Source: Opitutia bacterium | GTDB taxonomy: Bacteria; Verrucomicrobiota; Verrucomicrobiia; Opitutales; Opitutaceae | DNA length: 64,000 bases | Assembly (NCBI GenBank): GCA_947478395.1 | Contig: CANJVR010000004.1 | Location: forward strand, 128,001 to 192,000 | Direction of reading: 5' to 3' | In this document: positions 10,529-47,426 of the stretch, one piece after another | Layout: each line of letters starts with the position of its first letter | How positions within the stretch are numbered: position 1 is the first letter of the stretch | Notes under the pieces: generated by a model | Database searches by the model: none | Told to the model about the DNA's origin: nothing | Seen by the model: only the letters and a program-made list of their open reading frames with translations | Program-made: the position numbers and the translations under genes

Positions 10529-10571
10529 GGGCCTATAGCTCAACGGTTAGAGCAGAGGACTCATAATCCTT
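10529..10571 (+). pseudogene. 5' fragment (43 nt) of host tRNA-Ile2(CAU); left island junction (att)
   Basis: GGGCCTATAGCTCAACGGTTAGAGCAGAGGACTCATAATCCTT is identical to the first 43 nt of the spliced island tRNA. No T-arm or 3' acceptor strand follows. Confidence 0.9.
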
Positions 10572-10619
10572 AGTCGAGCCGAACTTTTCTCCTCTGAAAC
10601 GAGTTTTGCCGGAAGCCTG

Positions 10620-10640
10620 CTTGGACACTTCTTGGACACT
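10620..10640 (+). repeat. tandem 10-bp direct repeat CTTGGACACT, candidate integrase arm-type binding sites
   Basis: CTTGGACACT-T-CTTGGACACT about 50 bp inside the left junction. The arm-site function is inferred from position. Confidence 0.55.
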
Positions 10641-10725
10641 CGCCAGTGCCTCGACGGGCTAACCGGCGTGAAACGGCCTGCAACAGTGGCAACCACTTGT
10701 CGGGGGAATCCGCTTTTTCCAAAGA

Positions 10726-11058
10726 GTGGAGATGAACACTCCTACGCCAGTTGATGAGGAACGTCAGCTTGCTCCTCTCGTTTCCACCGCCCGCTTTGCA
10801 GCCGCCTACGGTCACCCCATTTGGGTCCGCATCGAGACTCGGGCTGGCGCGACGGTTGCAGATGAATACACGAACCAGCTTCGGGTTGGGTATCGTCTCA
10901 TGGTCAACAAATGCAGCGAGCGCATCTTTGCCGAGGTGCTCACGCCAATCTGCCGTGTCGCCCGACTTGAGTTTTTTCCGACGCGTCCGCCGCTGCTTTT
11001 CGGAACGTTCCTAATCAAGCTGGTCGCTCACGGACGTTTTAGCGGTAACGGCAGATGA
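10726..11058 (+). CDS. hypothetical protein
   Basis: 110-aa ORF converging on the 11083 ORF; no motif recognised. Confidence 0.4.
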   Translation: MEMNTPTPVDEERQLAPLVSTARFAAAYGHPIWVRIETRAGATVADEYTNQLRVGYRLMVNKCSERIFAEVLTPICRVARLEFFPTRPPLLFGTFLIKLVAHGRFSGNGR

Positions 11059-11082
11059 CAGCCCGATTTTTGGATTCGGTTG

Positions 11083-11550
11083 CTATGCGTTCGTTCGAAC
11101 CGCTGCGGACCCCAATCGATGATTCCTCGGGCGCATTGCTCCACCCCGTCGTTCTCCGATAAGGTAAAGGAGATTGGGGCGAATTTCGTCTTTGAGCGCG
11201 AAACGAGGCACGTCGGGCAGATCGGCAACGTAGAATCGCGCGGCGTCGAACGCTGCGGGGGGCAGGCAAATTCCCACCACCGGAGAGCCTGTTTCACGGA
11301 GGACTGCGATGTGCGGACCGCGCACTGGCGTTCGAATTTCCAAGCCTCGTTCGAATGTCATGCCTCGTCTTTGGAGGAAGCTGAGCAGCACGGCCGAGTT
11401 GAAGCTTATGCCAGCGAGCGGATGGGACGACTCTCTTTCAGATCGCAGAGTGAAGGTTGTCGAGCGGGTATCGCATAGGAGCGTCAGGGCTCCGTCAGGG
11501 GTGCGGGCAATTACGGTAAGTGGCCCCACGGATGAATCGATGGTATGCAT
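11083..11550 (-). CDS. hypothetical protein
   Basis: 155-aa ORF, 3 nt downstream of the 11554 ORF on the same strand. Confidence 0.55.
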   Translation of the reverse strand: MHTIDSSVGPLTVIARTPDGALTLLCDTRSTTFTLRSERESSHPLAGISFNSAVLLSFLQRRGMTFERGLEIRTPVRGPHIAVLRETGSPVVGICLPPAAFDAARFYVADLPDVPRFALKDEIRPNLLYLIGERRGGAMRPRNHRLGSAAVRTNA

Positions 11551-11553
11551 GGT

Positions 11554-11967
11554 TCAATTGCGTCCGACGGACATGACGCGGTTATAAATTCTTCCGTTGG
11601 CCAACACTGAGTCGTTGGAGATGACCATCGGGAGGAATGGTAAGGCCTCAAAAATAGCATCTGCCTCGATGCTGTCGCGGAGCGTCGGAACGCAGGCGAG
11701 AACGACGCGGTCGCAGATGCTCAAGAAGGCCATGAGCGGTATCTCGTGATTTACTCCAGGGATCTGTGGGAGCGGTTCCACATGGAGTGAAAGGCGTCGT
11801 CGTTTCTCGATCGTCCTCAGCATGGCGGCGAAGAGCGGGCAATTGAGGAAGCACGAAGCCGGAGTTTCGTGGCGAAGAAAGAGGTAGGCGCGATCGTCAG
11901 CGGTGACGCAGAGGTCGATGTGGTTGGCCTCGTCGGAGGCGATAATTGTGTCGGTAGAGTTGAGCAT
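11554..11967 (-). CDS. hypothetical protein
   Basis: 137-aa ORF with an AT-rich leader. Confidence 0.6.
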   Translation of the reverse strand: MLNSTDTIIASDEANHIDLCVTADDRAYLFLRHETPASCFLNCPLFAAMLRTIEKRRRLSLHVEPLPQIPGVNHEIPLMAFLSICDRVVLACVPTLRDSIEADAIFEALPFLPMVISNDSVLANGRIYNRVMSVGRN

Positions 11968-11981
11968 AAAATTTGAAATAA

Positions 11982-12015
11982 AAAGGCCGGCACCGCGTGT
12001 GCGGTGCCGGCCTTT
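11982..12015 (-). terminator. rho-independent terminator
   Basis: AAAGGCCGGCACCGC-GTGT-GCGGTGCCGGCCTTT perfect hairpin followed by a T-tract on the minus strand, downstream of the 12034 ORF. Confidence 0.85.
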
Positions 12016-12033
12016 AGTTGGGGGCGGTTGAGG

Positions 12034-12597
12034 TTAGGATTGGTCCTCGTCAATTCGCGCTTCGACCCAACCCTGAAGGTCATCGAGGATCGGGGGGAGG
12101 TATCGCTCGATCAGCATGCGCTCGATGAGCCGAGACACCGAAATCGTGTGCAGTCGCGGCAACTCAGCGTTGGGCGTGAAGTCGAGGAACTTCCGGAGCG
12201 CTGCGAGCTGTTTCGGGGTCGCCTCCGCGTTGGGGTCTGCGGCGGACATGGCGCGTTTCGGCAACGCGGCGAGGATGAATTCGCCGCGGCGCGTGAGCGT
12301 GCGGCGTGTCCAGATGTCGCCGCTGCCATCGTAGACGGCGTAGTTGAGATCGTCGGGAGCTTTCAGGAACAGACGGCGCTGTTTTCCGAAAGCGGAGGCC
12401 ACGAACGGCGGCAGGTTTTCCGAGATGGGACTGGACCAGTGCGTCGGGAGGCCCGCCACTACGATGATTTGGCGACCCGCGGTGGCTTGGTCCGCGAGAT
12501 CGAGCGAGCTGAGTCTTTGCAGTTCAGCGAGCATTTCGGTTTTGGCAACGCGGTTGGGGTTGAGGACTAACGGTTCAGACGATGTTAGAATCGGCAT
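12034..12597 (-). CDS. hypothetical protein
   Basis: 187-aa ORF with an A/C-rich leader (AAACAAAAACAAAAACACC-ATG) and a downstream terminator. Confidence 0.7.
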   Translation of the reverse strand: MPILTSSEPLVLNPNRVAKTEMLAELQRLSSLDLADQATAGRQIIVVAGLPTHWSSPISENLPPFVASAFGKQRRLFLKAPDDLNYAVYDGSGDIWTRRTLTRRGEFILAALPKRAMSAADPNAEATPKQLAALRKFLDFTPNAELPRLHTISVSRLIERMLIERYLPPILDDLQGWVEARIDEDQS

Positions 12598-12944
12598 GGT
12601 GTTTTTGTTTTTGTTTTTTGGTTTGGGAATGCGTGTGCCGCCGTAGTGGCGGAATCACGCGCGATGGGTGCACGGGCTCGTTGGCCCGGTCATTAATGCC
12701 ATCTCCGGTATTCGGATCAGAAACAGCCGGAACGGCTGCTCATCTCTGAGGATCGGTGATTGGAATCATCTCCCGGCTTTTCTGGCGGCGGGGCGTTGAG
12801 GCGAAGCCCAATGTCCCGCCGCATAACAGCGAAAACGCCCAGAAAGCATCCAACTCGAACGTGTCACACCTCTGGAACACGAGCCCGCTCTTACGAGCGG
12901 GCTTTGTATAACGCGCTTGAAGTCTGATCCGCCGTGCGCGTCCG

Positions 12945-13451
12945 CTATTCTCCCGCAACCGGTGCTGGCCGAGATTTTTTCTTCGTGTTCGAATCACGGC
13001 GCGCCGCGTTAATCACGCAGCGAACCGCAGCGATGGACGTATCTCCAGTAGGCGCCAGATCGATCGCACGAGCGATTCGTCTCACCAACAAAAGCTTGGT
13101 GCATCGTTCAAGTTTAGCGCAATGGGCGATGGTGCGGCAGGCATGCATATAAGACCACGGATAACTACGGCTAGGGAGGCGATAGCGACCGGTATCGAGC
13201 CCTTCACTTTCGTTTGGATACCATCGGCCGCCGGAGTCCTGCCATCCGTCGGGATGTTCGAGTCGGTCACGTCGAGAAATGTAACGCACCGCCGCCCGGG
13301 CAGGGGCCGACGTGGCGAACATTACGAGGAGCTTTTCGTAGATTTCACGGCGGCTTTGTGGCGAGGTCGACTCGCACGGGGAATCAGCGTTAATTTGGGT
13401 TGCTGGTGGGTTGGCCGGAATTTGATCTCCGGATACTTGGGTGTCGTTCAT
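12945..13451 (-). CDS. hypothetical protein (mobile-element type)
   Basis: Conserved-looking block HPDGWQDSGGRWYP...RLPSRSYPWSYMHACRTIAHCA. Start placed at MNDTQ, downstream of the 13575 terminator. Confidence 0.65.
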   Translation of the reverse strand: MNDTQVSGDQIPANPPATQINADSPCESTSPQSRREIYEKLLVMFATSAPARAAVRYISRRDRLEHPDGWQDSGGRWYPNESEGLDTGRYRLPSRSYPWSYMHACRTIAHCAKLERCTKLLLVRRIARAIDLAPTGDTSIAAVRCVINAARRDSNTKKKSRPAPVAGE

Positions 13452-13574
13452 GATGTTTGTTATTTGCCAGCGTTCCGCGATGGCACGGTCCTCTACTTGC
13501 GATTTTGTGTTAATGCCTGCCGGCATCGGCCTGAGGCCGGTCGATGCGGCAGAAAAGTGACTGGGCAGAAAAAT

Positions 13575-13599
13575 GCCCGGCTCTGTGACAGAGCCGGGC
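13575..13599 (-). terminator. rho-independent terminator after the radical SAM gene
   Basis: GCCCGGCTCTG-TGA-CAGAGCCGGGC followed by ATTTTT on the minus strand. Confidence 0.75.
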
Positions 13600-13633
13600 G
13601 TGTTGATTTGTGGTTGCCTTGATCCGTCCGCGA

Positions 13634-14740
13634 TCAAGCCGATGGCGTGGGGTTAGCGGGCCACGCGCTAACAAGGCCCCACCAACGTGCGAGCCATGCG
13701 GCATGCGTGCCACGCTCGGCTTCGGGCATGCGTTTCAACGCCGCTTGTGTCCCGAGAGATTTGTCGGGCCAGAGGTGAAGTCTATTGGCGACGCCGATTT
13801 CGGCGGCGATGCGCTCGATCATCCGAAGCGAATCGAGCGCGTATTTCTGCCATTCTTCTGGGGTTTTGAAGACATCCGTGCGAAGAGCGCACCCCAATTC
13901 GCGAGCACGCGCTTCGATCCGACTTACGTTCTCCGCCCGAATGTTAATCGGTTCGTGGAAGATCGTCATTGGACTCAAGGGAGCAAGCGCACCCATTGTA
14001 GCGCGGAGATCATTCTCGTCGCATTCCGGGTATGTCGGAGCCATCGCCACAAATACAGGGATGCCCAAGGCTGCGGCATCTTTTAACGTCGCCAGTCGAA
14101 GGCTCGGGGCGGGCGCTTTCGGTTCGTAGATTTTCGACAAATCTGCCCGAAGCGTGGGGATGGACATGCCCAACAGGACGCGACTGCCGAACGATTGAAG
14201 GAGATCGAAGTCTTGTCGAACGAGCGGACTGCGCGTGAGGATGCGAACATTCAGCGTCGAGCGATCCCGGATCAGTTCCAGGGAACGCCTAACGACAAAC
14301 CGCAAATGGTTTTGGAGATCTCGCCGTCTTTTAGGATCCGGGTGGCGAATGACTTGGTAAGCATCGGTCGTGCTGCAAAGCAGAATAGCCCGGTTGCCGT
14401 CAGGCTTTAGCTCTTGTGCGGGGGTGGCCTGGGCGCGATTGAGAGACTTGAGGAATGCCTTCTCATCCCAAGTGCGGAGGAACACATAGTCGCCCCAGTT
14501 GAGATCGGGATCAGCGACTCCGAGCGATCGGAGCTTGGGCGCCTGTTTGTTGGCGCTGACACTCGGGACGTAGCAGAAATCACAGCCGTGTCCGCAGCCG
14601 ACAGCGAAGTTGAGAGCCCAATCTGAGAGGCTTTTGTAAACGAAGCCGTTCGACGTGATAACGCTTGGCGCCGGTTTTATGCCGGTTTGCCAGAGACCTG
14701 TGACAGTTGGAGTTGAGGGGTTGGAGGAATTGGTTTCCAT
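13634..14740 (-). CDS. radical SAM protein, spore-photoproduct-lyase-like (SplB/Rv2578c-like)
   Basis: LNFAVGCGHGCDFCYV (CxxxCxxC), STTDAYQ, ILTRSPLV, EPKAPAPSLRL. Confidence 0.85.
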   Translation of the reverse strand: METNSSNPSTPTVTGLWQTGIKPAPSVITSNGFVYKSLSDWALNFAVGCGHGCDFCYVPSVSANKQAPKLRSLGVADPDLNWGDYVFLRTWDEKAFLKSLNRAQATPAQELKPDGNRAILLCSTTDAYQVIRHPDPKRRRDLQNHLRFVVRRSLELIRDRSTLNVRILTRSPLVRQDFDLLQSFGSRVLLGMSIPTLRADLSKIYEPKAPAPSLRLATLKDAAALGIPVFVAMAPTYPECDENDLRATMGALAPLSPMTIFHEPINIRAENVSRIEARARELGCALRTDVFKTPEEWQKYALDSLRMIERIAAEIGVANRLHLWPDKSLGTQAALKRMPEAERGTHAAWLARWWGLVSAWPANPTPSA

Positions 14741-15506
14741 GGTTTATCTTTCTATTTATCGATCCGCCGCGAGGGCGGGTTGGTTTTGAGTTGTTAGAGG
14801 TGGCAGAGAGCGCGGGTGTGTCGTGAGCGAACCATTCACTCGCGTTCACCTGCCGATGCGCGGCCTAAGGGCCGCCCGAGGAGACGCCCTGCGCGATTTC
14901 GCGCGGACGATCTAACCTTGGCAGTTATTGAATTCGGTCGCTGCCTCCCTGCGGAGGCGTCGGACCTTTTACGGCGATGGAGTTAGACTCCACGACCGGC
15001 CTTCGTTCACCACGAGAGGCGCCTTGCGGCATTCAATCAGCTTTACAGCGGACACCTGGCCCTTCTTCGATACTGGCTGCGTCTGGCGCAGTTACCCTCG
15101 AAGGCTACCAAGCTCTTGATCCGTGTGGAGTGAACCACGTCGGGACGACCAAGTCTCGTCTCAGACACCATAACCCGTCCGTAAACCCGCTCGGATCCCG
15201 CGATCCCAGAAGGGACTGCTAGAGACAAAAAATGTCTCTAGTCAGCCGACTTTCGGCCTGAGCTATGAGACATTGTTAACCGCCCCGGAAGGGCAGCCGT
15301 CATTGAAGACGTGTGCAGGAAGGCAAATTCTGCGACGTTTGTCAAGTGAGGCACTCTTTGGTGACAATATGTATTTATTAATGGATACAGTTTTTGACCG
15401 CTTGTTAATTCCAGTTTTCGTTCGACCGCGTCCGAGCGCGACAACCAACCCCGTTACCTCTAAAACGAATCAATTGGCCTCGGAGCGACCGCTTGTTTCG
15501 GCACCA

Positions 15507-15863
15507 TCACTCTAATTTCGTCACGACGACCGACGCTTCAAATTGGCCTGTCGGCTGCCGCCGGTATTTTTTACCCAAGCGGATGCGATGAGCCGCAATT
15601 TGATCCAGTTCGTCCGCCAAGTAAGCCTCGATCAACCGGCAGGCTTCAGCGGCAGGCAGGAATACGGTTGCTCTCCCGATGACGGCCGGACCGACCGGGG
15701 TCTTGCCTGAGAGGACTCGGGATAAATACGCCGGATCGAGCTTCAGCGCGGTCGCCAAGGTCAACTGATCCGAAACGTCGTCTCCCAGCCTACCGGGTTG
15801 GTCACGCAAATGTTGCAGGAAATTCATCACGCGAGTCGGGGGCGCTTTCTCGGTTTTCGGCAT
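15507..15863 (-). CDS. putative XRE-like helix-turn-helix regulator
   Basis: QLTLATALKLDPAYLSRVLSGK HTH-like pattern; divergent from the nuclease/AAA genes. Confidence 0.65.
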   Translation of the reverse strand: MPKTEKAPPTRVMNFLQHLRDQPGRLGDDVSDQLTLATALKLDPAYLSRVLSGKTPVGPAVIGRATVFLPAAEACRLIEAYLADELDQIAAHRIRLGKKYRRQPTGQFEASVVVTKLE

Positions 15864-15968
15864 CAGCCCAACGGACCATAAATTGACATTAGTGACAAGT
15901 CTTCTTGACGCCGATGAATTTTGCCGTTTTCTAGTAATTGTTACTACTGTCATTTACATCGACCGACC

Positions 15969-16577
15969 ATGAATCAGAACGCCAGCCCTCGCTGCGACAC
16001 GAATTCCGTTGTTGCCGCCATTCAGTCTCTGCCATTCGACATCCTTCAGACCGCCTTCCAGGGTGTCGCTTCTACCGAACATATCATTCTCCCAGTGCCC
16101 GGTGCGAAGCCGTTAGAGCACGTTTGGGATATTTTTCGATTCGGAGACCGCCTCCATAAAGCCTTCACGCGGTATTACCACACTGGGGAATGCCAGCCGA
16201 TTTTTAAGCCCTATGCCAAGGCGCTCACCGACTGGCTGGACAATGCGGCCGTCGGTCGACTCAAAACCGACTGGAAATACTGGGCCCGTCGCGGCGTGCC
16301 TGCCGGCATACTGGATGCGCTAATGATCGGCAACGGCGCTCGCCGCGGAGTGCTTGAACTAAAAACAACCGAAGGCAGTGGCGCCACACCTCGCCCCGCC
16401 CATCTCTGCCAGGTCGGCGGATATCTCCACCTCCAGTCGGCTTGGGATCGCACCGAGATGCATGATCAGTGGGCAATTTTGGCATACGCGTGTCCCCTCG
16501 AACAACGGTGGCACCTGCACGAGTTTCAGGACATCAGTCGCGTGATCGAACCGGCCGTAACCTTGCTCGCAGGCTGA
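15969..16577 (+). CDS. PD-(D/E)XK nuclease superfamily protein
   Basis: GILDAL...VLELKT...HLCQVGGY matches the RecB-family D...ExK...QxxxY pattern. Confidence 0.75.
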   Translation: MNQNASPRCDTNSVVAAIQSLPFDILQTAFQGVASTEHIILPVPGAKPLEHVWDIFRFGDRLHKAFTRYYHTGECQPIFKPYAKALTDWLDNAAVGRLKTDWKYWARRGVPAGILDALMIGNGARRGVLELKTTEGSGATPRPAHLCQVGGYLHLQSAWDRTEMHDQWAILAYACPLEQRWHLHEFQDISRVIEPAVTLLAG

Positions 16578-16583
16578 ACACCC

Positions 16584-17858
16584 ATGGCCTGGCAAACTCA
16601 CAACGTATGGGTGCGATGGTTGGTCGTCTGCGCCTGTGCGCGGAAGCCGGTCAATGGACGAATTTCGTTGAGCGAGGTCGGAAGCGACTTGGATTTTCTA
16701 GCGCTCTCCCGAGCGATCGTCCCCGCAATCGTCCCGAAGGACGCCGACGCTGATTGGATCGATGCACTGTGGCAACAGGCCCCCGACGACGCCACGCGAG
16801 CGGAGCTGGTAAGATTTCTGGAGTGGCTGGTGCATTCCGATGCTGAAAGCGCCCGTCGATTTGTTGAGCTGACTCCAGCGGTGCTCACGAACGCCGAAGC
16901 GTGGCGCGCCACCGGCGTCTTCGCGGCATGCAGCGATGCCCCAGCCCAAGCTGAACTGATCCGAGTCGCGCAACAGCATATTCATGACCACCTGCGTCCG
17001 GTGCCCTTGGCCCACGACGACACTCTCACCGTCAGCCAGACCACGGCTCATCGGCGCATTTCGGCCATGGCCCGTGCATATTTTCACCGCGCCACGGCTT
17101 CCTGTTCCGTCACGCCAAGGCTCGCGCCGTTGCTGATGGGGCCGACTGGGTCCGGCAAGAGCAGTCTGCTACGGCGCACAGCGAAGGACCATCAGGCGGC
17201 GTTCCTGAGGATGAGTGTTGGTGAGTGGATTCCGCTGGGAGCCAAAGATGTGCGGCCCACCGTTAAGACTATCGTCGATATGCTCGCCAAGTCGCCCAAC
17301 GGCCGTCTGGTGCTTTTCATCGACGAGTTGGACAAAGCTGGCGTCGATGCATCGGGTTGGACGAGATCCGCGCTGAATGAGATTTTCGCCGTGTTGGACC
17401 GCTCATTTCCAGCGGCGGCACTGGAGGCGGCGAATTCGAGTCTCGGGATTTCAGGGGAGGAACTCGAAGAGCGCATCCAACAAAAACTATTTTTCGCCGG
17501 AGCGGGCACGTGGCAGCGACTCTGGTCGAACGGCGGGTCGCTGGGCTTCGGCGCCGGCAACAACAGGAACGCGCAGGTGATCGACTACGTCGCAACGGAG
17601 AAAGTTGTGCCGGTGGAATTGCTCCTGCGCTTCTCGTGGCCGCCCGTTCTGCTCGAGTATCCGAGCCCCGAGGAAACGATCACGTTGTTCGATAAGACCG
17701 GACTCACCCGACTGGCCGAATACGTCGGGGTGACACTCGATCCCGTCAAACATGACTGGTCACGAGGAGGAATGAGGAGCTTGGAGTCGCTCGCTGGCGA
17801 ACTGCTGATTCGGCAGCACGAGCAGCCGACCGCATCTTGGAATGCCGACGCACCCTGA
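16584..17858 (+). CDS. AAA+ ATPase
   Basis: Walker A GPTGSGKS and Walker B LFIDELDK; 6 nt downstream of the nuclease gene. Confidence 0.85.
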   Translation: MAWQTHNVWVRWLVVCACARKPVNGRISLSEVGSDLDFLALSRAIVPAIVPKDADADWIDALWQQAPDDATRAELVRFLEWLVHSDAESARRFVELTPAVLTNAEAWRATGVFAACSDAPAQAELIRVAQQHIHDHLRPVPLAHDDTLTVSQTTAHRRISAMARAYFHRATASCSVTPRLAPLLMGPTGSGKSSLLRRTAKDHQAAFLRMSVGEWIPLGAKDVRPTVKTIVDMLAKSPNGRLVLFIDELDKAGVDASGWTRSALNEIFAVLDRSFPAAALEAANSSLGISGEELEERIQQKLFFAGAGTWQRLWSNGGSLGFGAGNNRNAQVIDYVATEKVVPVELLLRFSWPPVLLEYPSPEETITLFDKTGLTRLAEYVGVTLDPVKHDWSRGGMRSLESLAGELLIRQHEQPTASWNADAP

Positions 17859-18026
17859 ACTTTCCACCCGCGACGCCTCGGCGGGATAACGAGTCCGACG
17901 TGATCAGCTTTTCATTGTATTCGACGCTAGGAGCGGACGTTGCATATCCTGCCACCTTTCAGCGATTTCTCGCCTCCTGCATCACTTCGCAGCAGCCTTG
18001 AGATGCGCGGGCCAGCGTCTATTGCC

Positions 18027-19259: not shown

Positions 19260-19325
19260 ATGCCATGTTATTCTACCAACCCTGAATAACTACTAACAGT
19301 AAAACGGTAAGAATTTCGACCAGCC

Positions 19326-38975: not shown

Positions 38976-39173
38976 AGGTTTTATTTCTGATTTCGCGGGC
39001 GCGTGATTGCGTCCGGTAATCCTGCCTATGACGGGGGTATCCCAAAATGTAAGAGGGACTCGCCCCATTTACACTTCCTTCAGATTTGGACTCCACGGTG
39101 GGAGGCTTCGCTCCGTGTGATGTCGCCAATTGGCGACACTGCCTAAGGCGAAATCGCCTCGAAAAGGGTTCTT

Positions 39174-39478
39174 TGGTGGGCCCACTGGGATTCGAACCCA
39201 GAACCAAAGGATTCAGTTGGTCCGGACGTTTCCGTCTGGTCTGGACTATGTCTTCACCCGCCTTGGAGGCGGGGACGGGAGTTACGCGGGAATTAAGGGG
39301 ACTAAACCCCTCCGCTAGTCTCTACACCTTCCACCGCTGTAGCGGTGGCTCGGCTCGGCGTTCCCATGCCACACTCGCGGCGAAGGGTTCTCCGAATTTC
39401 CCCGTATCCCGCCGGCAATCACTCACCGGCGGCACCATTTTGATGAGTCCTCTGCTCTAACCGTTGAGCTATAGGCCC
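39174..39478 (-). tRNA. tRNA-Ile2 (anticodon CAU, lysidine type) interrupted by a group I intron; exons 39478-39443 and 39213-39174
   Basis: Joined exons give a 76-nt cloverleaf GGGCCTATAGCTCAACGGTTAGAGCAGAGGACTCAT^AATCCTTTGGTTCTGGGTTCGAATCCCAGTGGGCCCACCA with encoded CCA. C4:G69 and C5:G68 are TilS determinants. Confidence 0.93.
39214..39442 (-). ncRNA. group I self-splicing intron (IC3, Azoarcus tRNA-Ile type), 229 nt, no ORF
   Basis: P1 pairs exon CAU with IGS GUG (U.G wobble). P2 has a GUGA tetraloop. Core motifs AAAUUCGG, AACGCCGAGCC, GAAGGUGUAGAGACUA and GUGAAGACAUAGUCCAG are present. P9 is GACG-GAAA-CGUC, followed by a terminal omega-G before AAUCC. Confidence 0.93.
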
Positions 39479-39550
39479 AAATCCAAAGAACGCCACGTTT
39501 GTCGCCTCACACGGGGGCCACTGCAACCTTCGTTTCGCGCGGCGCTGACG

Positions 39551-39982
39551 TTATTCGTCGCGCGGGAGCTTGGCTTCTCGAATCAGCGTGCGAAATTCAG
39601 CTCTGACACGAGCGTCCTTTAAGGCTTCGAGGAGAAGTTCCGAAAGGAGCGAACTGGCCGCGCGTTCGTTCTCCTTGGCCACCGGCAAAGAGGGAATTGG
39701 CGGCTTGGGAGCGATACGCGGCGCGAACTCCGAAATATTCACGCCGAGGCGCTCCGCTTCCATCAATTCCAATTGGTATCCCAATTTGACCATGCTCCGG
39801 ACGTCGGCTTCCGAGTATCGCAAGACCCGTTGGTTTAGGTGCACAGGGTCGAGCTGCCGGTGGTCATTTGTGAGACGCTTGATGGTGCCATCAGAAACGC
39901 GGAACAGGAGAGCCATTTCCTTTCGAGTGAAGGACGGCGATGGTGAACCTAAATCGGTGGATGGATCTGTGAGGCCGAACAT
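39551..39982 (-). CDS. excisionase/recombination-directionality-factor-like HTH protein
   Basis: FTRKEMALLFRVSDGTIKRL...RVLRYSEADV Xis/MerR-like pattern; adjacent to the integrase. Confidence 0.7.
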   Translation of the reverse strand: MFGLTDPSTDLGSPSPSFTRKEMALLFRVSDGTIKRLTNDHRQLDPVHLNQRVLRYSEADVRSMVKLGYQLELMEAERLGVNISEFAPRIAPKPPIPSLPVAKENERAASSLLSELLLEALKDARVRAEFRTLIREAKLPRDE

Positions 39983-40102: not shown

Positions 40103-41228
40103 TTAAGCGGCGCCCTTTTCTTTCCCCTTGGGAAGAAGGGCCCCCAAGCCCGTCGTGGTTTTCCGACGCTCGGCCACGTAGTAGGTCGCCGTGATCTTTA
40201 TTGAGGCGTGGCGAAGGCTTTTGCTCGCAGCGACCAAACCCCATTTTTCATTAATCAACGAGCCGCACTCTTTCCGCAATGTGTGTAGGGGGCACCGCGC
40301 TTTGACACCGTGATCGCGCAGCCACTGATTGAGGTTCTTAAAGCTACTTTCACAGCGGTAGTGCCGGTAGTTTTTCGGGCGCCGTGAGTTGTTCTTAGAC
40401 TCAACGATGTAGGGCCCCGTGGCGCGTTCTTTGAAGATTCGAAGGACATCCAGGAGTTCCTGCTCGATCGCGACGTCCCCGCCCGACGCGACGGTCTTCA
40501 GCTCGAGGAATTCATGCGCTTCAATACTCATATGGCTGCGCTCCCAGTTGATCCACGTCCACAGGGCCTGATCAATTTCCCCGCGACGCAGACCTAGGAG
40601 GAGACCAAAAATGAAGATTTTGAATTCCTCAGGGCGGTCGGTCGACAGCTCGGCGATCGCCAAACGCGTGAGTGCCTGGGCCTCGATTTTCGAAGAGTAG
40701 GCAAAGCCGCTCAAGCCTTTCACCGACATCGATACCTCGTGGAATGGCATGGGTGGGACGATGACGCCCAACTGCGCGATTTCCTTGATTACTTCCTCAC
40801 GGAACAGCGCCCGCAAATTGCGGATATATCCGTCCATTGTGACTTGAGCGTGCCTAAGTTGCACGGGTTGGTCGACGAACCGGGCGAGGTATGCCCGCTT
40901 GAAGTCCTTCACCTTGGTAAGCGTGATCGTATTCAGCAACTGCTCGTCAACCTTCGCTCTCCATTCCCGAATCCGAACGCCCTTGGCTTTGCCAGAGCCG
41001 ATACCGGACATCCAAGCTACCAGGGTTCTGAGTTTCGAAATGTAGCTGATAAAGGTTGTCCCCGACGTGAAGAGACCCGTGAGAAGAGCCAGGCGAATAA
41101 ATTCGCCGACCGTGAGAACGGGAGCCGGTTTAACGGCCTTCGGTTTGTAACGCTTTACGGTTTCATCCCAGCCTACGCCGATGACGCTGAGATAGATCTC
41201 ACGGGCCTTACGGGCTGCGGCGTCTGAG
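40103..41228 (-). pseudogene. tyrosine integrase, 5'-truncated
   Basis: GLRRGEI, LKT, HTLRK and LRHASIKITATYY catalytic motifs. The frame stays open upstream of the 41011 ATG (DAAARKAREIYLS...TVGEFI), then enters the 41229 repeat and meets an in-frame TGA with no start codon. Confidence 0.8.
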
Positions 41229-41241
41229 GGAAGCCCCGGAC

Positions 41242-41412
41242 GGGGTCAGGTTGCCCATTTCCCCCTGTTGACCGGAGACCGTTCGAGGAGCTGCGGGCGG
41301 AAGTTTTAGGCTGCGGCTCCGAATAGCTTTTCAAGCGACGGTCGACGCGGAGATTTTCTTGGAGTCACTTCGCGCTCCGTTGGTCGGGGCGGGAAATGGG
41401 CAACCTGACTCC
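41242..41412. mobile_element. MITE-like element with 22-bp terminal inverted repeats
   Basis: GGGGTCAGGTTGCCCATTTCCC (41242-41263) versus GGGAAATGGGCAACCTGACTCC (41391-41412), one mismatch. Confidence 0.65.
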
Positions 41413-41599
41413 CTCCGACAACTCAATTTATTTTTTCACAAACCGAATTTCAAATTCATCTTAATTGTTATATAACCGAATTAAATCACTCGTCGAAAAT
41501 TTAATCGAATAAGGGGTAGCCGACATATAACAAATCACATCGCTAAAAAGTTTTTCGGAAGCACATTAGCATCCTTCGTGAGTCACTATATTGCGAAAT

Positions 41600-42469
41600 T
41601 TACGCGAGCTCAACGCGGGCGTTTGTTTCAATTATGTTTTTTAACCAAGCACGGAGTTTTTTCTGATCAAAGCAGCCCGCAATTTCCACATTGCCAGCGA
41701 TATATCCAGTCGCGCCGTCAAGCTGTAGTTCCGTAACGGTTACTCTTGCGACTTCGTCGTCACAAGTCAAAAGGTCTGGTCTTGCTGAAAAATCGAGTAT
41801 AAAAGTAAAGAAATATGTTGAGTTTGTATCAACCGATGATTTGCCATAAATTTCCTTGGCGCTACCACTCATGTTGCGATATCCGATTTGCTCCTTGTAA
41901 TATACCGCAAACTCTTTGAGGTCAGATATAGCTACTTCATCATACATGACTTTAACTCCATCTTGAAAGACAAAGTCCGCTGGAGTTCCATTGCTATTCC
42001 AGCCTTCCTCATACATGTTGAACATGTTGCTATCAAACAGTTGCTGGATTGAATCTTCCTCGTAGTTTTTTGGTATTTTCATATCAATTTCGTTTTCTTC
42101 GTCTTCAACTTGATTTTCTACTACTAATTCTTCTAAACTATTTTCATCAGTATCCGGTTTCGACATAAGACTAGATTTACCTGAGGCATTAATTTTTGTT
42201 TTTCCAGACAACCATGCGGGCAAGGTCTCGACGGTTTCAGCTAAATATCCATCCGCTATTTTTCTTAACACAAAGTTCTTATTGTAAGTTAACGCTAAAT
42301 ATAAATTCCAAAACCATAATAGGAAAACATTAGGAATAATATTTAAGACGAAAACCTTGGGCTCGCCTTTTAGTAATGGGATAAATGAACCGATCAATAG
42401 GCAGCCGATATTAAAACCAATTGGCGCATATACATCCTTTTTTTCGGGGTGGGTTAATTTGATTTTCAT
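41600..42469 (-). CDS. hypothetical membrane protein (AT-rich)
   Basis: N-terminal hydrophobic hairpin (APIGFNIGCLLIGSFIPLL...FLLWFWNLYLAL) and acidic C-terminal region. Confidence 0.7.
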   Translation of the reverse strand: MKIKLTHPEKKDVYAPIGFNIGCLLIGSFIPLLKGEPKVFVLNIIPNVFLLWFWNLYLALTYNKNFVLRKIADGYLAETVETLPAWLSGKTKINASGKSSLMSKPDTDENSLEELVVENQVEDEENEIDMKIPKNYEEDSIQQLFDSNMFNMYEEGWNSNGTPADFVFQDGVKVMYDEVAISDLKEFAVYYKEQIGYRNMSGSAKEIYGKSSVDTNSTYFFTFILDFSARPDLLTCDDEVARVTVTELQLDGATGYIAGNVEIAGCFDQKKLRAWLKNIIETNARVELA

Positions 42470-42765
42470 AAACTTTTTTAAGGCTTAAAATAGATCATAA
42501 CGGTGTTTGGCGACGCGGTATTCCGAAAGGGGCAAATCGAATAAGGGGGTGATCGATTCGTAATCTATCAAACAGCTGCATTTTTTCGCGTAAAGCCAAT
42601 TAGGCTCTTCTTAAACTATTGTTCGAAATTACTTGCTGCCCATATAACGTAACTGTGCATCAACGATATGCACTAATAAGCTAATAATAATTAGGCGATT
42701 TCACACTCGAACAAGCGTCCTCCTGACCTTTTCACAAAGAGCGAAGCTCTAGTTCATACCGACTT

Positions 42766-43200
42766 TCACGGTCCTGTTTTCTTGCTTTCCCCCTGAAGTA
42801 TTTTTCGTAGCTCAGACGCAACATCTGCATCTTGGAGCATACCTAAATCCTGAGCCAAGACTACGACGTTTTTACTCCTCAATCCCACAGCAAACCCCGA
42901 CAAATAACCGCCGCTTCCTGCGCTGCGAACGGAAATGATCAGTACATTGGTCGAATCACCATTAAGGTCGAGCAACTCAACCTTTTCAATCTGACCATCC
43001 CGTTCTATGAGGATTCCACCCGCAAAATCATCGGCGTCTAATCCTTTTTTCGCCTCTTCGTCGTCAGCTTGGTAAAACCTAACTGTGAAAGACCCAGTTG
43101 AGAGCGGTTCGAAGTTACCTTCCGCAACAACCGCCGTCAGCTCCTTGGAAATCCTGATTTTTTTCACATATCGGCCTTCGGCTCCTTGAGTTGAAGCCAT
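42766..43200 (-). CDS. PliI-family inhibitor of I-type lysozyme (signal peptide possibly frameshifted)
   Basis: VVAEGNFEPLSTGSF, RDGQIE, DLNGD, RSAGSGGYLS. Confidence 0.75.
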   Translation of the reverse strand: MASTQGAEGRYVKKIRISKELTAVVAEGNFEPLSTGSFTVRFYQADDEEAKKGLDADDFAGGILIERDGQIEKVELLDLNGDSTNVLIISVRSAGSGGYLSGFAVGLRSKNVVVLAQDLGMLQDADVASELRKILQGESKKTGP

Positions 43201-43617
43201 AAAACAAAGAGCTAAAAAAATAGGGCCTATTTCATAGTTGATTCAAAGATTACCAGACTAGCTGAGACATTTACAGGTACACCCCAAAGAAATTAGCCCC
43301 AGCAAAGCCCGTCTAAGCCAAAATATGGCAGAAATCGCAAATCTCGCAGTCCAGCCTCAAGTCCGCTTTCTCTGCACTCATTTCCAATCCGTTCCACTCA
43401 TCCATTTTTAATTCGAAGTAAGAACGTCGCCCTGCCCCCGATTGAATTAAACTTTTTTGGGATCTTTTGGAAATACAGGGGCGTCTAGGTGGTGATTACT
43501 CGGAAGGTGGGTCCAAAAATAAATTTAAGCCGATAAAGTTCTTGATTTAATTAAATGTCCGTGAACGTTCAAAATAGTACCAATCACGAAGGTTTTGCTA
43601 GGGAGCCGTTAAAAATT

Positions 43618-44058
43618 ATGGATCAAACAACAATTCTCAAAGAGGTGTCCGAATCAGTGGAAGCTTATCGAGAACATCCAGAATTCTTCGACGATGCTGA
43701 AATCACCATGGCGGCTGTTCGATATAGCGGAAGTTCGCTTGAGTTCGCCTCAACGAGACTTCGAGATAATGATAAGATTGTGCTTGCCGCTATAAGCGAA
43801 GATAAAGACGCACTAGAATTTGCGTCAGACCGGTTAAAGGCGCATAAAAAGACCGTTTTACATTCTGTCAAAATCTGGGGGTCTTCGCTACAATTCGCGA
43901 GTCTTGATCTTCAGGGTGATAAAACTTTAGTTCTTACGGCAATCAAAGTGAGAGCATCTGCCATTCAATACGCTTCCCCTGAATTAAAAGCCGATAAAGC
44001 GTTTATTAAGTCGGCTAGGAAGATTGACGACGGTGTCGATGAATATTTGCAAGTTTGA
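43618..44058 (+). CDS. DUF4116-type repeat protein
   Basis: Repeated (S/A)LEFASxxLxxDKxxVLxA units. Confidence 0.8.
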   Translation: MDQTTILKEVSESVEAYREHPEFFDDAEITMAAVRYSGSSLEFASTRLRDNDKIVLAAISEDKDALEFASDRLKAHKKTVLHSVKIWGSSLQFASLDLQGDKTLVLTAIKVRASAIQYASPELKADKAFIKSARKIDDGVDEYLQV

Positions 44059-44334
44059 ATGTAGGTTCTCATTGGCGAAACTAGTCATCAGGTGTAGAGA
44101 CCAGCTGCGGTGATCCCCCGAAATCCGGGCCGATCCGAAAATCAGAGAGAACCGTCGAAAGATCCTTCTGCAGTATTGCGAGGTCGATGCGGCCGCAATG
44201 GTCATGATCTGGAAGCATTGGATTACGCAGCTGCTTGAACTGACCGCAAAAACTAAACAACCCCCTCCCATTTATGTAACCTAATTTAGTTGATCCATTG
44301 TCCAAAGGAAGGGGTCTGCCTCACAAATATACAC

Positions 44335-45210
44335 ATGAATTTACATCCAATCAACGAGTCCATACTGGATTTGTATCAGTCATATCGTGACGGCAGTACA
44401 AGTGATCTTTTTGACCTGAAAATTCCTATGTTTTACGGAGTAATGGCACCTCGAAAGATGCTCATAATTGGCGCAAACCCATCCTTTTCCAAGGCAGAGG
44501 AACAGCATGAAAACATCATCAAATGGTCTGCGGAGCTGAATGGGCAGAAGCCATTTAAAACAAAGGAGGACTTTGATACTTTTTTTGGGTCAAGAGATAA
44601 TTTAGACGCAGTAGACAAAAACACAGCAGTGCAAGTTCAGGAGCTTTTCGTTCTGAAGTACAAAAATTATTTCCATGAAAAACTCGATCATCTTGCATAC
44701 GCGTGGGGGCAAGATAGAGAATCTATCAGTTTCAACACTCGGCCATGGAACTATATAGATGTCTTTCAGAGTAGGATCACGAAGTTGGACGAGCTGAAAC
44801 GGCGAATTCAGAAGGAGGAGCGGTCACCCAAGGTCGCGGGAACCACGTTCCAGAAGGAATCGGTAAAGATGGCATGTGAGCTTGTTTTGTCTGCTAATCC
44901 CGAGGTTATCGTAGTTTTGAACGCGTATTCCTGCAAGGTTTTGACGAAGCATGCTAGTGACCTTTTCCCTCCGATGTGCAGAGTCGACGTTAGGACAGGA
45001 GCCGTGCACAGCAACGGCCGGAATGGGCAGCTACGCGGTGTTCCAATATTTTACGCTTCGATGGTCACAGGACAGAGGGCCATCGACTTGGGAAGTTATC
45101 TGCGCTTGCAATGGTCAATAGCCCACGCGTCTGGCCGTCTCGCTCAGGATCCTTCCTGGAAACCTGTGCTTCCGAGCAAGGACGATGGTGAAAATACTCA
45201 TGATTCTTAG
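44335..45210 (+). CDS. hypothetical protein (weak UDG-superfamily-like LIIGANPS motif)
   Basis: 291-aa AT-rich ORF. The fold guess rests on one motif. Confidence 0.6.
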   Translation: MNLHPINESILDLYQSYRDGSTSDLFDLKIPMFYGVMAPRKMLIIGANPSFSKAEEQHENIIKWSAELNGQKPFKTKEDFDTFFGSRDNLDAVDKNTAVQVQELFVLKYKNYFHEKLDHLAYAWGQDRESISFNTRPWNYIDVFQSRITKLDELKRRIQKEERSPKVAGTTFQKESVKMACELVLSANPEVIVVLNAYSCKVLTKHASDLFPPMCRVDVRTGAVHSNGRNGQLRGVPIFYASMVTGQRAIDLGSYLRLQWSIAHASGRLAQDPSWKPVLPSKDDGENTHDS

Positions 45211-45341
45211 GTAAGTTACGGGGCCTAGTGGCACAGCTGCACGGTGGCCAATTCCTGTCACTGAAATCCAGTCATTGGGTTCGGCTATGACCGTAACCGC
45301 GATCACGCCGTTGGGGCCGGACGCTGGACAACGTCTTCGTC

Positions 45342-45475
45342 GGAAGCCCCGGACGTGGTCAAGTTGCCCATTTCCCCTATTGACCGGAGAATTTTCGAGA
45401 AGCTGCGGGCGGAACATTGCGTGGCGAAGGCTAAGGCCGCGATCGAGCGTTTTTCAAACGACGTGGATATTTTCC
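45342..45475 (+). repeat. diverged direct-repeat copy of 41229-41370
   Basis: Shared blocks GGAAGCCCCGGACG, GTTGCCCATTTCCCC, TTGACCGGAGA, AGCTGCGGGCGGAA and TTTTCAA.CGACG in the same order. Confidence 0.8.
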
Positions 45476-45518
45476 ATGGCTCGTGATCGAGCTGGAGGCG
45501 CGGAGGATAAGTGGCTTA

Positions 45519-45596
45519 ATCTCCGCGCAAAATGCGGAGATGGTTCTTGTTTGTGCGGAGATAACGGAGCAGATTCGCCGCATAACCTGCGGAGAT
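45519..45596 (+). promoter_or_regulatory. candidate operator array upstream of the Fic gene
   Basis: ATCTCCGC-N7-GCGGAGAT palindrome plus two further TGCGGAGAT copies at 45554 and 45588. Confidence 0.6.
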
Positions 45597-45600
45597 TAAA

Positions 45601-46719
45601 ATGTACATCCACCAACGCCAAAATTGGCCTCACTTTACCTGGAACGATGCCGTCATCACAACGCTGCTGAGCGATGTTCGGCATGCTCAAGGTCGCCTGC
45701 TCGGCCAGATGGAAGCTTTGGGTTTCCCTCTTCGACAGGAAGCGTCCTGGGTGACCCTCACTCAGGACGTGCTCAAGACAAGCGAGATTGAGGGTGAGAA
45801 ACTGGATACGCAGCAGGTGCGCTCTTCCATTGCTCGGCGCATGGGTATTGAGATCGCGGCTTTACCCTCTGTGGATCGCAGCGTTGAGGGGATCGTTGAA
45901 GTCATGCTTGATGCAACGGGCCGCCAGCGGGAGCCGCTGGATGAAGAGCGGCTTTTTGGGTGGCATGCCGCCTTGTTTCCCACGGGAAGAAGCGGCTCTG
46001 TGCGCATCACGGTCGGGAATTGGCGCAACGAGCAGAGCGGTCCGATGCAAGTCGTCTCGGGCGCCGATGGACGCGAAAGAGTTCATTTCGAGGCGCCTTC
46101 GCACGACAGGCTAAAACCTGAAATGACCCAGTTTCTCGCATGGCTAAATTCCACGCCGGCAACGGATCTAGTCCTCATGTCTGCCCTGGCGCATTTCTAC
46201 TTCGTTACGATCCATCCCTTCGACGACGGCAATGGGCGTATCGCCCGCGCCATTGCGGACATGATCCTTGCTCGCTCGGAGAACAGCTCACAGCGGTTTT
46301 ATAGCATGTCTGCTCAAATCCTGCAGGAGCGAAACGCTTACTACGATATCCTGGAGGCCTGTCAGCGAGGCGGCCTGAACATCTCGGCTTGGATTGAATG
46401 GTATCTTAACTGCCTCAAACGGGCGATAGGTTCGTCAAACGAAGTCCTCGGCCTCGTCTTGAAAAAGGCGACATTTTGGCAGCGTCGCGAGGGCGAGACG
46501 TTCAACGAGCGTCAGCGGGCCATCCTCAATCGGCTGTTCGACGGTTTTGAGGGAAAGCTCACCTCGTCCAAATGGGCGAAGCTGGCAAAATGCTCTCAGG
46601 ATACGGCTAACCGTGACATTTCTGATCTGATAAAGCGGCGGGTCCTCGTGAAAGATGAAGCGGGGGGGCGCAGCACCAGCTATTCGCTAAAAGAAGGTGC
46701 CGAGCCGGCAAAATCCTAG
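45601..46719 (+). CDS. Fic family protein (DUF4172 N-terminus, C-terminal HTH)
   Basis: Canonical HPFDDGNGRIAR motif; N-terminus MYIHQRQNWPHFTW. Confidence 0.93.
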   Translation: MYIHQRQNWPHFTWNDAVITTLLSDVRHAQGRLLGQMEALGFPLRQEASWVTLTQDVLKTSEIEGEKLDTQQVRSSIARRMGIEIAALPSVDRSVEGIVEVMLDATGRQREPLDEERLFGWHAALFPTGRSGSVRITVGNWRNEQSGPMQVVSGADGRERVHFEAPSHDRLKPEMTQFLAWLNSTPATDLVLMSALAHFYFVTIHPFDDGNGRIARAIADMILARSENSSQRFYSMSAQILQERNAYYDILEACQRGGLNISAWIEWYLNCLKRAIGSSNEVLGLVLKKATFWQRREGETFNERQRAILNRLFDGFEGKLTSSKWAKLAKCSQDTANRDISDLIKRRVLVKDEAGGRSTSYSLKEGAEPAKS

Positions 46720-46809
46720 AACGGATCAGCGTCGAAAATCCGCGGTCGCTGCGATTGAAGTCGTCAAAAGTGGTCAGCGGTTGGCGCTGCTGCGGAATGT
46801 AGGCAGGCC

Positions 46810-46845
46810 TTGACTACTCGCACATTTAAATGTCATTTTAAGTGC
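46810..46845 (+). promoter_or_regulatory. candidate promoter/operator of the TA pair
   Basis: TTGACT -35-like box followed by the palindrome ACATTTAAATGT just upstream of the antitoxin ATG. Confidence 0.5.
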
Positions 46846-47205
46846 ATGGAAACTGTTTCTGTCACCACCGCCCGCCAGAATCTTGGGGCTTGGTTGGCCC
46901 GCGCCGCCAAGGGCGAGGAAATCGGCATCATCTCCGGCTCGCAAATCATCGCCCTGCGCCCGGTGGCAGTAACCGCAGCAGACTACGCCTTCCAGGAATA
47001 CGGCCTCAAGCCGGACGAGATGAACCGCATCACCGCTAAGCTCCATGAAGAAGTTTCTACCGCCGCCGCCATCCCCTACGCCGGCAGCCTCGCCGCCGCC
47101 CTCGCAGCAGCAGGTGCTGCTGACCAAAAGGTTTCTCGCCCTAGCAAAGGATCTGCCCGCCACCGCGCATCCAGCAATCGACGCCGCGCTCCGCTTACTG
47201 CCTGA
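46846..47205 (+). CDS. Phd/YefM-like antitoxin
   Basis: METVSVTTARQNLGAWLARAAKGEEIGI Phd-type N-terminus; overlaps the toxin ORF. Confidence 0.7.
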   Translation: METVSVTTARQNLGAWLARAAKGEEIGIISGSQIIALRPVAVTAADYAFQEYGLKPDEMNRITAKLHEEVSTAAAIPYAGSLAAALAAAGAADQKVSRPSKGSARHRASSNRRRAPLTA

Positions 47206-47386
47206 AACGTGGGGACGACCCCACGCGCACCGGGGCGCTAGCGTGCGCGTGCTCTCACGCGGTGCCTATGAGATACGGGCCGGCCTTGCCCTACGTATCA
47301 TTTTTCTACCCATCGGCGACGAATTGCGCTGCGACTTCATCGGCACTCACGCCGAGGTTGAACGGTACCTGCGGAATCGCGCTTGA
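47114..47386 (+). CDS. RelE/ParE-superfamily-like toxin
   Basis: LLTKRFL...AYEIRAGLALRIIF...FIGTHAEV. Start is GTG 47114 or ATG 47045. Confidence 0.65.
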   Translation: MLLTKRFLALAKDLPATAHPAIDAALRLLPETWGRPHAHRGASVRVLSRGAYEIRAGLALRIIFLPIGDELRCDFIGTHAEVERYLRNRA

Positions 47387-47414
47387 GCGTATATCCGGCC
47401 CCCCCCAAAAGCCT

Positions 47415-47426
47415 GTGGGCCCACCA
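47415..47426 (+). other. 12-nt tRNA-Ile2 3'-end remnant (GTGGGCCCACCA), probable right island junction
   Basis: Exact match to the last 12 nt of the tRNA, in the same orientation as the 10529 fragment, at the switch from island genes to host-like genes. Confidence 0.7.

Follow-up and report, generated by a model that had tools for sequence, protein, structure and literature searches.

How can a bacterium keep an integrated island that has cut through its gene for tRNA-Ile2, the transfer RNA (tRNA) that reads AUA codons? The question is raised by a window of 64,000 nt (the whole stretch of DNA analysed here; Opitutia bacterium, family Opitutaceae, assembly GCA_947478395.1, contig CANJVR010000004.1, forward-strand positions 128,001 to 192,000), in which the two ends of such a gene enclose an island. 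The genome that holds the window, here G000, derives from lake metagenomes and is assembled into 9 contigs at 98.8% completeness, the tRNAs of the rRNA operons not being among the assembled sequence. Other G-numbers are labels of compared genomes. The answer that is considered probable is that the island breaks the host tRNA-Ile2 gene and supplies, in trans, a spare copy split by a group I intron, that this intron would shield the spare from integration, and that the island of G000 belongs, in decayed form, to a family of such elements.

The 36-nt 5' exon of tRNA-Ile2 has exactly two copies in the window, one on the plus strand (10529-10564) and one on the minus strand (39443-39478); shuffled sequences give an expectation of 0. 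By direct reading, the plus-strand copy extends via AATCCTT up to position 10571 and there departs from the tRNA sequence, as had been claimed in an earlier sequence-only reading of this DNA. The 3' 32 nt of the tRNA have a single copy in the window, within the minus-strand gene. The last 12 nt, GTGGGCCCACCA, are found again at 47417-47428 on the plus strand, exactly where low-GC (guanine plus cytosine) DNA switches to host-like DNA. The host gene is left as positions 1-43 and 65-76, separated by 36.8 kb. The earlier limits of the island, 10529 to 47426, were thus right on the left and 2 nt short on the right, where the tRNA remnant runs to 47428. The GC content is 0.39-0.62 in the island and 0.61-0.65 in the flanks, and the island region was not found in 40 relatives apart from isolated cassettes. 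An inversion between the 36-nt inverted repeats of one tRNA gene was considered and dropped, as it fails to explain two copies of both tRNA ends and is no longer needed given the related elements described below. ARAGORN reports no tRNA anywhere in the window; Rfam at its gathering threshold calls the stump together with island DNA (10529-10594) a tRNA, with 29.9 bits against a threshold of 29.

A complete tRNA-Ile2 gene lies inside the island on the minus strand, at 39478-39174. It is split after U36 by 229 nt (39442-39214) and reads ...CTCAT, then the intron, then AATCC... through the encoded CCA at 39174, so that the full copy interrupted at CAT^AATCC by a group I intron, described earlier, is found again by direct reading. 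The Rfam group I model RF00028 covers 39455-39222; its score of 29.4 bits, with an E of 2.3e-5 for 1 kb of searched sequence, stays under the gathering score of 50, and at that threshold the intron is not reported in a search of the whole window. Four precursor tRNAs with an intron at this site (hereafter the 36/37 class) were folded with RNAalifold. In all of them P1 is predicted as CAU/GUG with a U.G pair at the splice site, the P1 extension carries compensatory changes in 4/4 homologs, and all four introns end in G. Compensatory changes affect 20 of the 88 predicted pairs, against 8.0 +/- 2.0 in shuffles (0/500 reach 20) and 1-3 pairs in slid controls, the structure having some advantage as it was derived from the tested alignment itself. 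The covariation supports a conserved fold of the intron, which we take to be of subgroup IC3. One 289-nt metagenome contig crosses it. Intron-less metagenome contigs join precisely at 39213|39443; these joints, at a depth of 77-117 in DNA contigs, were rejected as evidence of splicing, as they trace back to other organisms whose genes have no intron. Within the P2 loop, GUGAGU (39420-39425, minus strand) is fully complementary to the final six exon bases, ACUCAU, and could form an alternative, longer P1-like pairing; the pairing is not conserved in the three homologs.

The host is equipped for this tRNA and uses the codon. ARAGORN lists 44 tRNAs in the nine contigs, among which the anticodon CAT occurs in two only, one initiator-like and one elongator-Met-like; together with the intron-split gene, G000 holds three distinct CAT tRNAs. 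No further copy of either exon is present in the assembly, and G000 probably has no other tRNA-Ile2. TilS is encoded (151 bits against a cut-off of 93.6). The determinants recognized by TilS are C4-G69/C5-G68. ATA codons are used 1.96 times per 1000 codons and occur in 746 of 1729 long open reading frames (ORFs).

Directly upstream of the spare, on the same minus strand, lie a xis-like ORF and an integrase ORF. The earlier description of xis and int beside the spare therefore stands for their presence (HTH_17 and Phage_integrase ORFs), with the correction that int is truncated. The integrase scores 30.3 bits with Pfam Phage_integrase (cut-off 27.1) and matches PHROG 1. It lacks ~80 N-terminal residues, presumed to be the arm-binding part; its homologs of 436-505 amino acids align from residue ~8, and the 459-residue integrase of G624 has ~80 extra N-terminal residues. 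A six-frame search of 401 sampled genomes of the phylum found integrase homologs (27-38% identity) in 19, G000 included, where a peptide-pattern search of genome contigs had given no match. A tRNA 3' fragment that starts near position 30 adjoins the 5' end of most homologs, about 300-450 bp away. The fragments are of tRNA-Asn (five cases), Tyr, Lys, Met and Ile2, the last in the best match, G215. The island of G420 has an intact tRNA-Asn at its far end in addition to a fragment of positions 30-75. These fragments point to crossover in the anticodon loop throughout the wider integrase family, as had been proposed, and to classical rebuilding of the target, because the far end in G420 is an intact tRNA-Asn.

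The elements in tRNA-Ile2 do not rebuild it. An 18-nt arm-type motif, TGGACACTTCTTGGACAC, lies 50 nt inward of the left junction of G000 and is unique in the window. In 401 sampled genomes of the bacterial family, from 63 genera, which were surveyed for this motif and for the introns, it occurs in 10, and a reversed control pattern in 0. It is present twice in each of five genomes (G215, G570, G759, G644 and G624). One copy stands about 45-50 nt past a truncated intron-less tRNA-Ile2 (positions 1 to 43-47; attL, the left attachment site), and the other between the start of the integrase gene and a tRNA-Ile2 3' fragment (positions 31/32 to 76; attR, the right attachment site). The two sites overlap in positions 31/32 to 43-47, that is, in 12-16 bp that comprise the anticodon loop, the 3' strand of its stem and up to four extra bases. 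Since the common core is only 12-16 bp, the tRNA-Ile2 gene is never rebuilt, and the proposed lack of repair in cis holds for all five elements; ARAGORN finds no tRNA at their attL or attR junctions. The left junction of G000 is almost base-for-base that of G624. The remaining motif matches lie beside intact initiator or elongator CAT tRNAs (G558, G017, G478, G527) or are chance-like. BLAST searches of the five genomes with an intron-less tRNA-Ile2 returned the att fragments and one gene with its exons 230-280 nt apart, and no contiguous full-length tRNA-Ile2. Weaker tRNA-like matches (76-86% identity) in these five genomes were attributed to other tRNAs; a check of one of them identified a tRNA-Lys.

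Seven members of the Ile2 family are recognized: G000, G624, G644, G570, G567, G759 and G215. The element of G624 lies on one contig of 26.4 kb and has attL, a radical SAM homolog, the intron-split tRNA, xis, int and attR in the order and orientation of G000, with 53% identity in the integrase and 48% in the xis-like protein; xis is separated from the tRNA by 72 nt (G000) or 64 nt (G624). The order is attR-int-xis-tRNA in G567, which was found via its intron, and attR-int-tRNA in G759, the tRNA being intron-split in both. In G644 the spare stands ~360 nt past the 3' end of int on the opposite strand. The genome of G215 is complete on a single contig, and its spare is enclosed by attL and attR at a distance of 37 kb from the former; in G570 the spare is 42 kb from attL, towards the island interior. 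A complete tRNA-Ile2 is accordingly located between attL and attR in G000, G624 and G215 and beside int in G567, G759 and G644, and it directly follows int or int-xis in 4/7 members, G000 included. The expected co-occurrence of int, xis and the split tRNA is observed in that all seven members have an intron-split spare, which is the sole full-length tRNA-Ile2 detected in each, and the int-xis-tRNA order recurs in G624 and G567; the link is not exclusive, as shown below. In an eighth genome, G705, an attR-like fragment lies 870 nt from an intron-split gene and the integrase is absent there, so that decay seems to have gone further in this genome. In G248, the sister species of G215, the tRNA-Ile2 gene is intact and intron-less, and the 54 nt ahead of it are 85% identical to the attL flank of G215; the flanks are rearranged and yield no clean empty site. 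A tblastx comparison of the G215 element with the window gave real matches in int and the attL junction alone, the remainder being noise of the sum statistics.

It is read from the sequences themselves that the host gene is broken, that the core is short, that neither junction restores the gene, that the element contains the spare and that the intron of the spare interrupts the core. Likewise read from the sequences, the target of the family's tyrosine integrase is a 12-16 bp core in an intron-less tRNA-Ile2(CAU) gene, made up of the anticodon loop and the 3' strand of its stem. Because attP (the attachment site of the element) has the core alone, integration leaves positions 1 to 43-47 at attL and 31/32 to 76 at attR, with a working gene at neither. 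From these data we infer that the spare is expressed and spliced, supplies the tRNA and is shielded from the integrase. The spare on the island would then provide the essential AUA-decoding tRNA in trans once the group I intron has removed itself from the transcript. Both intron sites known from the family, 33/34 and 36/37, fall within the core, in agreement with the earlier claim that the intron interrupts it. The DNA of the spare would no longer contain the target, and the spare would escape its own and related integrases because the intron interrupts the core; an uninterrupted spare would carry much of the core, because the anticodon loop of a working tRNA-Ile2 cannot vary freely. In G000, later insertions would have cost the island the N-terminal part of its integrase, the P arm and the greater part of attR and so fixed it in place; the island is probably immobile. 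Features of an arm-binding integrase are reduced there to the P' arm motif, the N-terminal part being missing; the relatives have both arms. All 8 spares, those of the seven members and of the decayed G705, are intron-split, against a family background of ~70/401. Together with the presence of two unrelated intron insertions this is no more than suggestive of a shielding role, the captures being few and related.

The 36/37 intron is present in G000, G624, G644, G570 and G567. A different intron, inserted after U33 (33/34), is found in G759 and G215 and likewise in G527 and in G004, G005, G009, G010, G014, G015 and G016, the latter seven being of the same genus as G000. Sequences similar to the 36/37 intron were detected in 18/401 genomes of the family (11/63 genera) and in 0/17 other genomes of the genus of G000; the closest relative of the G000 intron, with 90% identity, is in another genus. 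Sequences similar to the 33/34 intron occur in 52/401 genomes and in 8/17 of that genus. The 33/34 counts are sequence matches, with the tRNA-Ile2 context checked in part. The resident intron-split locus of the same-genus relatives maps to contigs C3, C2 and C5 of G000, where there is no tRNA-Ile2. An arrival of the split gene of G000 by horizontal transfer, with the island, fits these data, because its intron class was found in none of the 17 other genomes of the genus and the resident locus in G000 lacks a tRNA-Ile2. The earlier proposal that the island is a vehicle for the intron is supported by the same distribution (0/17 in the genus, 90% match in another genus); it is qualified by intron-split genes that are also chromosomal, without int or xis.

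Several observations weigh against the reading favoured here. No relative is close enough to display the empty site of G000 itself: homologs of its flanks (uxuA-like on the left in 11/41 genomes, GH2/alginate lyase on the right in 5/41, G000 included) do not stand beside a tRNA in any of them. G000 is without an intact attR, P arm and full integrase, and its membership is judged from attL, the P' arm, int/xis homology and gene order. Among 14 further genomes with the 36/37 intron, 13 have no int or xis homolog in the fetched 8.7-17 kb, and the same is true of the fetched flanks of six 33/34 genomes (G004, G009, G005, G010, G016 and G527). The intron-split gene is also an ordinary chromosomal gene, since most flanks are without an int/xis homolog. 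In two genomes, G435 and G732, an intron-less tRNA-Ile2 exists alongside an intron-split one. In G215 and G570 the spare, 37-42 kb from attL, is far from int. No RNA run is listed among the runs with G000 sequence, and the spare is predicted, from DNA, to be expressed and spliced. Finally, the read-derived contigs cover 39449-48000, in the right-hand part of the island and beyond it; the left junction is accepted as real because homologous junctions exist in five other genomes.

Complementation in trans may be real with the intron a mere passenger, the islands having captured common intron-split alleles without any protection. This is a possible reading that we hold to be unlikely. Both intron classes are spread through the family in the numbers given above, mostly without a nearby integrase, and actinophages with tRNA-dependent lysogeny use spare tRNAs that are intron-less in the accessible part of PMC10865867. 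What speaks for protection is that every one of the eight spares is split against about 70/401 in the background, and that two intron classes sit at two sites of one 7-nt anticodon loop that belongs to the core; the loop of a working tRNA-Ile2 is constrained, so an uninterrupted spare would retain much of that core. The split gene might instead be a second copy of the host, not cargo, with the island tolerated thanks to an integrase-proof gene and the two brought together later. In G000 and G624 a single contig holds the gene flanked by attL and attR, with xis 72 and 64 nt away, and the int-xis-tRNA order is repeated in G567; the class of the G000 intron was found in none of the 17 other genomes of its genus, and the resident locus of the relatives maps elsewhere in G000, without tRNA-Ile2. 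These findings make a host copy improbable, in spite of the separate loci of both gene kinds in G435 and G732, the conserved chromosomal context of the split gene in four g203 genomes, and a resident 33/34 gene in 8/17 genomes of the genus.

It was also suggested in the sequence-only reading that an intact tRNA once stood at the right junction and was deleted later, which would make the internal gene incidental. The right junction of G000 is clearly eroded, with 12 nt of tRNA remaining, and both the distant integrase relative G420 and an unrelated island in G118 do rebuild their targets (tRNA-Asn and tRNA-Ile2, respectively). That suggestion is abandoned as very improbable: the attR of the intact relatives is a 3' fragment, of which G000 has lost the 5' part, no intact tRNA is seen at either junction in 5/5 related Ile2 elements with both junctions kept, and the attL junction of G000 is nearly identical to that of G624. 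A contig that is chimeric at the repeated tRNA exons is hardly credible. The genome does derive from lake metagenomes, in which contigs break at the tRNA exons with depths up to hundreds, since other organisms share these exons. Against an artefact, the same attL architecture exists in five other genomes, one of them complete on a single contig. The int region is present in 8 lake-water metagenome runs from 2 studies, and contigs from 4 runs (2 studies), possibly including the source sample, are identical to the window over 39449-48000 and extend further; the 289-nt contig over the intron adds to this.

The features of the locus are listed in Table 1. The cargo was annotated with Pfam, PADLOC and PHROGs. 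In a PHROGs scan of 23 island proteins, 4 had any match; a phage life-cycle family was matched by the integrase alone and phage structural or lysis families by none, and the island is a non-phage element, not a temperate phage; it resembles the phage system described below in its operation without being a case of lysogeny.

Table 1. Features of the tRNA-Ile2 island in the 64,000-nt window.
Feature	Positions	Strand	Remarks
attL	10529..10571	+	host tRNA-Ile2 positions 1-43, intron-less, truncated
Equivalent of att common core	10559-10571	+	last 13 nt of the attL stump
Island left end, P' arm	10572..10660	+	arm-type motif TGGACACTTCTTGGACAC at 10622-10639
Island cargo stretch	10661..39173		Pfam, PADLOC, PHROGs; GC 0.47-0.62; AAA ATPase and unknowns included
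Radical SAM protein	13634-14740		cargo
PD-Lambda-4-like giant protein	19326-23084		cargo
HATPase/nuclease, SduA-like	25435-27219		cargo, adjoining DRT4
DRT4 reverse transcriptase	27216-28799		cargo
Type IIG restriction-modification enzyme	28796-32317		cargo
HKD-Snf2 helicase	32293-35622		cargo
3' exon of spare	39174..39213	-	positions 37-76, CCA encoded; 100% identical to intron-less G019 tRNA
Group I intron	39214..39442	-	229 nt, ORF-less, after U36, terminal G; class Ile2.5Ug (Williams' scheme)
5' exon of spare	39443..39478	-	positions 1-36, ending CAT
Leader motif GTTCTTTGG	39483..39491	-	common to intron-split tRNA-Ile2 genes; complementary to CCA + trailer (39176-39168)
xis-like HTH_17 protein	39551..39982	-	143 amino acids; Pfam E 3.6e-4; 48% identity to G624 protein in same position, 43% to G567
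Tyrosine integrase remnant	40103..41245	-	380 open codons; first start codon 41011; Phage_integrase ORF 40103-41011
Nested low-GC insertion	41229..45418		4.2 kb, GC 0.39-0.47; direct repeats 41229-41302 and 45342-45414
Two mobile cassettes	45481..47386	+	SoFic-like Fic protein 45601-46719; Phd-like antitoxin pair 46810-47386
attR remnant	47417..47428	+	host tRNA-Ile2 positions 65-76, final 12 nt; positions 31-64 and P arm gone

The nested insertion adjoins the broken 5' end of int and carries genes for a PliI lysozyme inhibitor and DUF4116 proteins along with unknowns. Its repeat (roughly 75-190 nt, with internal inverted repeats) recurs on contig C7 of G000 (about 9964-12110), where it flanks another truncated integrase fragment, and the 4.2-kb block may represent a small mobile element with insertion sites within integrase genes or beside them. 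The SoFic-like and Phd-like cassettes have 93% and 91% identity to isolated copies in G012 and G017 with unlike flanks; the toxin-antitoxin cassette at the right end was dropped as an att marker, as its flanks in G017 differ. A homolog of the HKD-Snf2 helicase (40% identity) lies directly outside the attR of the G624 element, which suggests tandem islands at the same site.

The leader motif, GTTCTTT(GG), is found 5-12 nt ahead of the tRNA start in nearly all examined intron-split tRNA-Ile2 genes of either intron class, island-borne and chromosomal alike, with the exception of G215; 7 intact genes without an intron and 6 broken copies of the host gene lack it. In G000, G624, G570 and G759 it is complementary to the CCA end and the trailer. 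It may form a leader-trailer helix or be a shared promoter, and its distribution suggests an intron-split gene cassette of common descent. Other observations concern the target. In G215 and G570 a second tRNA-Ile2 stump (positions 1-22, then TTCCGAG...) stands about 100-145 nt upstream of attL, a possible sign of successive integrations or of a further element family with its cutting site in the D arm of this gene. On contig C8 of G118 a 6.3-kb island occupies the same anticodon-loop site of tRNA-Ile2 with the gene rebuilt in cis (tRNA 581-655, fragment ~6917-6961); its integrase has no similarity to the G000 and G624 proteins (tblastn, E 1e-3).

The nearest known system is tRNA-dependent lysogeny of the actinobacteriophages Fionnbharth/K4, cluster L and Gaia (Guerrero-Bustamante & Hatfull, mBio 2024, PMC10865867, here from the accessible part of the paper). 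Both systems have a tyrosine integrase, flanking arm-type sites and attB (the host attachment site) in an essential single-copy tRNA gene, as well as a short core, of about 8-17 bp in the phages and 12-16 bp in the islands, from which the tRNA is not rebuilt. The islands differ in being non-phage elements with defence cargo in another phylum that target tRNA-Ile2(CAU), and in a spare that is split by a group I intron within the core, where the phage spares are intron-less; in the accessible part of that paper the word "intron" appears in the reference list only. The requirement for the spare was shown by genetics for the phages and is inferred for the islands. Classical Islander-type islands (accessible part of PMC4383910) resemble the present ones in their tyrosine integrase, in crossover within the anticodon loop and in the tRNA fragment displaced to a place beside int; the classical attP, however, has the whole 3' half of the tRNA and rebuilds it in cis, which the Ile2 clade does not.

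The intron class Ile2.5Ug is one of four classical bacterial tRNA intron classes (Williams 2020, bioRxiv 10.1101/2020.01.27.920355). The G000 intron resembles the type IC3 introns of Azoarcus pre-tRNA-Ile (Williams 2020; accessible part of PMC3984707) in its site after U36 of tRNA-Ile(CAU), the U.G pair in a short P1 (CAU/GUG), the terminal G, the lack of an ORF, a length of about 230 nt and, probably, a conserved core. Williams maps introns alone and does not discuss islands, integrases or any broken second copy; the 17 new cases reported there may include the 33/34 class of the relatives. That disrupted tRNA genes resist the integration of mobile elements was proposed for archaea by Randau & Soll (EMBO Rep 2008, as cited in the accessible part of PMC4390854), and in both settings an interruption of the anticodon loop removes the recombination target. 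Theirs are archaeal, protein-spliced introns or split genes that protect the host, whereas here a bacterial intron, predicted to be self-splicing, would shield a gene on the mobile element itself. A literature search found no paper that joins tRNA-dependent integration with intron-interrupted, integration-resistant tRNA genes, and none of the titles among the matches listed for tRNA-dependent lysogeny is about introns.

For annotation, the finding means that ARAGORN, and Rfam at its gathering threshold, miss the intron-split gene, and pipelines would report G000 as lacking tRNA-Ile2 or would mis-assign it. On the favoured reading, tRNA-dependent integration is extended from actinophages to non-phage defence islands in another phylum, and the intact members G624, G567 and G759 are a natural system in which to test the protection of a tRNA gene by an intron, an idea previously confined to archaea. 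The finding bears on the question of why ORF-less group I introns persist in the anticodon loops of bacterial tRNA genes and how they move between lineages. Tentatively, and with more doubt than assurance, the islands may be both selective pressure and vehicle: the intron-less gene would be destroyed, an intron-split gene installed and, after decay of the island, left as the sole, integrase-immune copy. The genomes with both kinds of gene (G435, C10:37374-37449 and C3:143215-143522; G732, C3:41312-41382 and C1:20286-20594, the latter assembly being 83% complete with 4% contamination) would fit as the intermediate that a replacement of native genes by intron-split ones predicts, and in the genus g203 the intron-split gene is found in a shared chromosomal context in 4 genomes. 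If such replacement is true, the patchy occurrence of intron-split tRNA-Ile2 in the family, in roughly 70/401 genomes, would be the footprint of its repetition.

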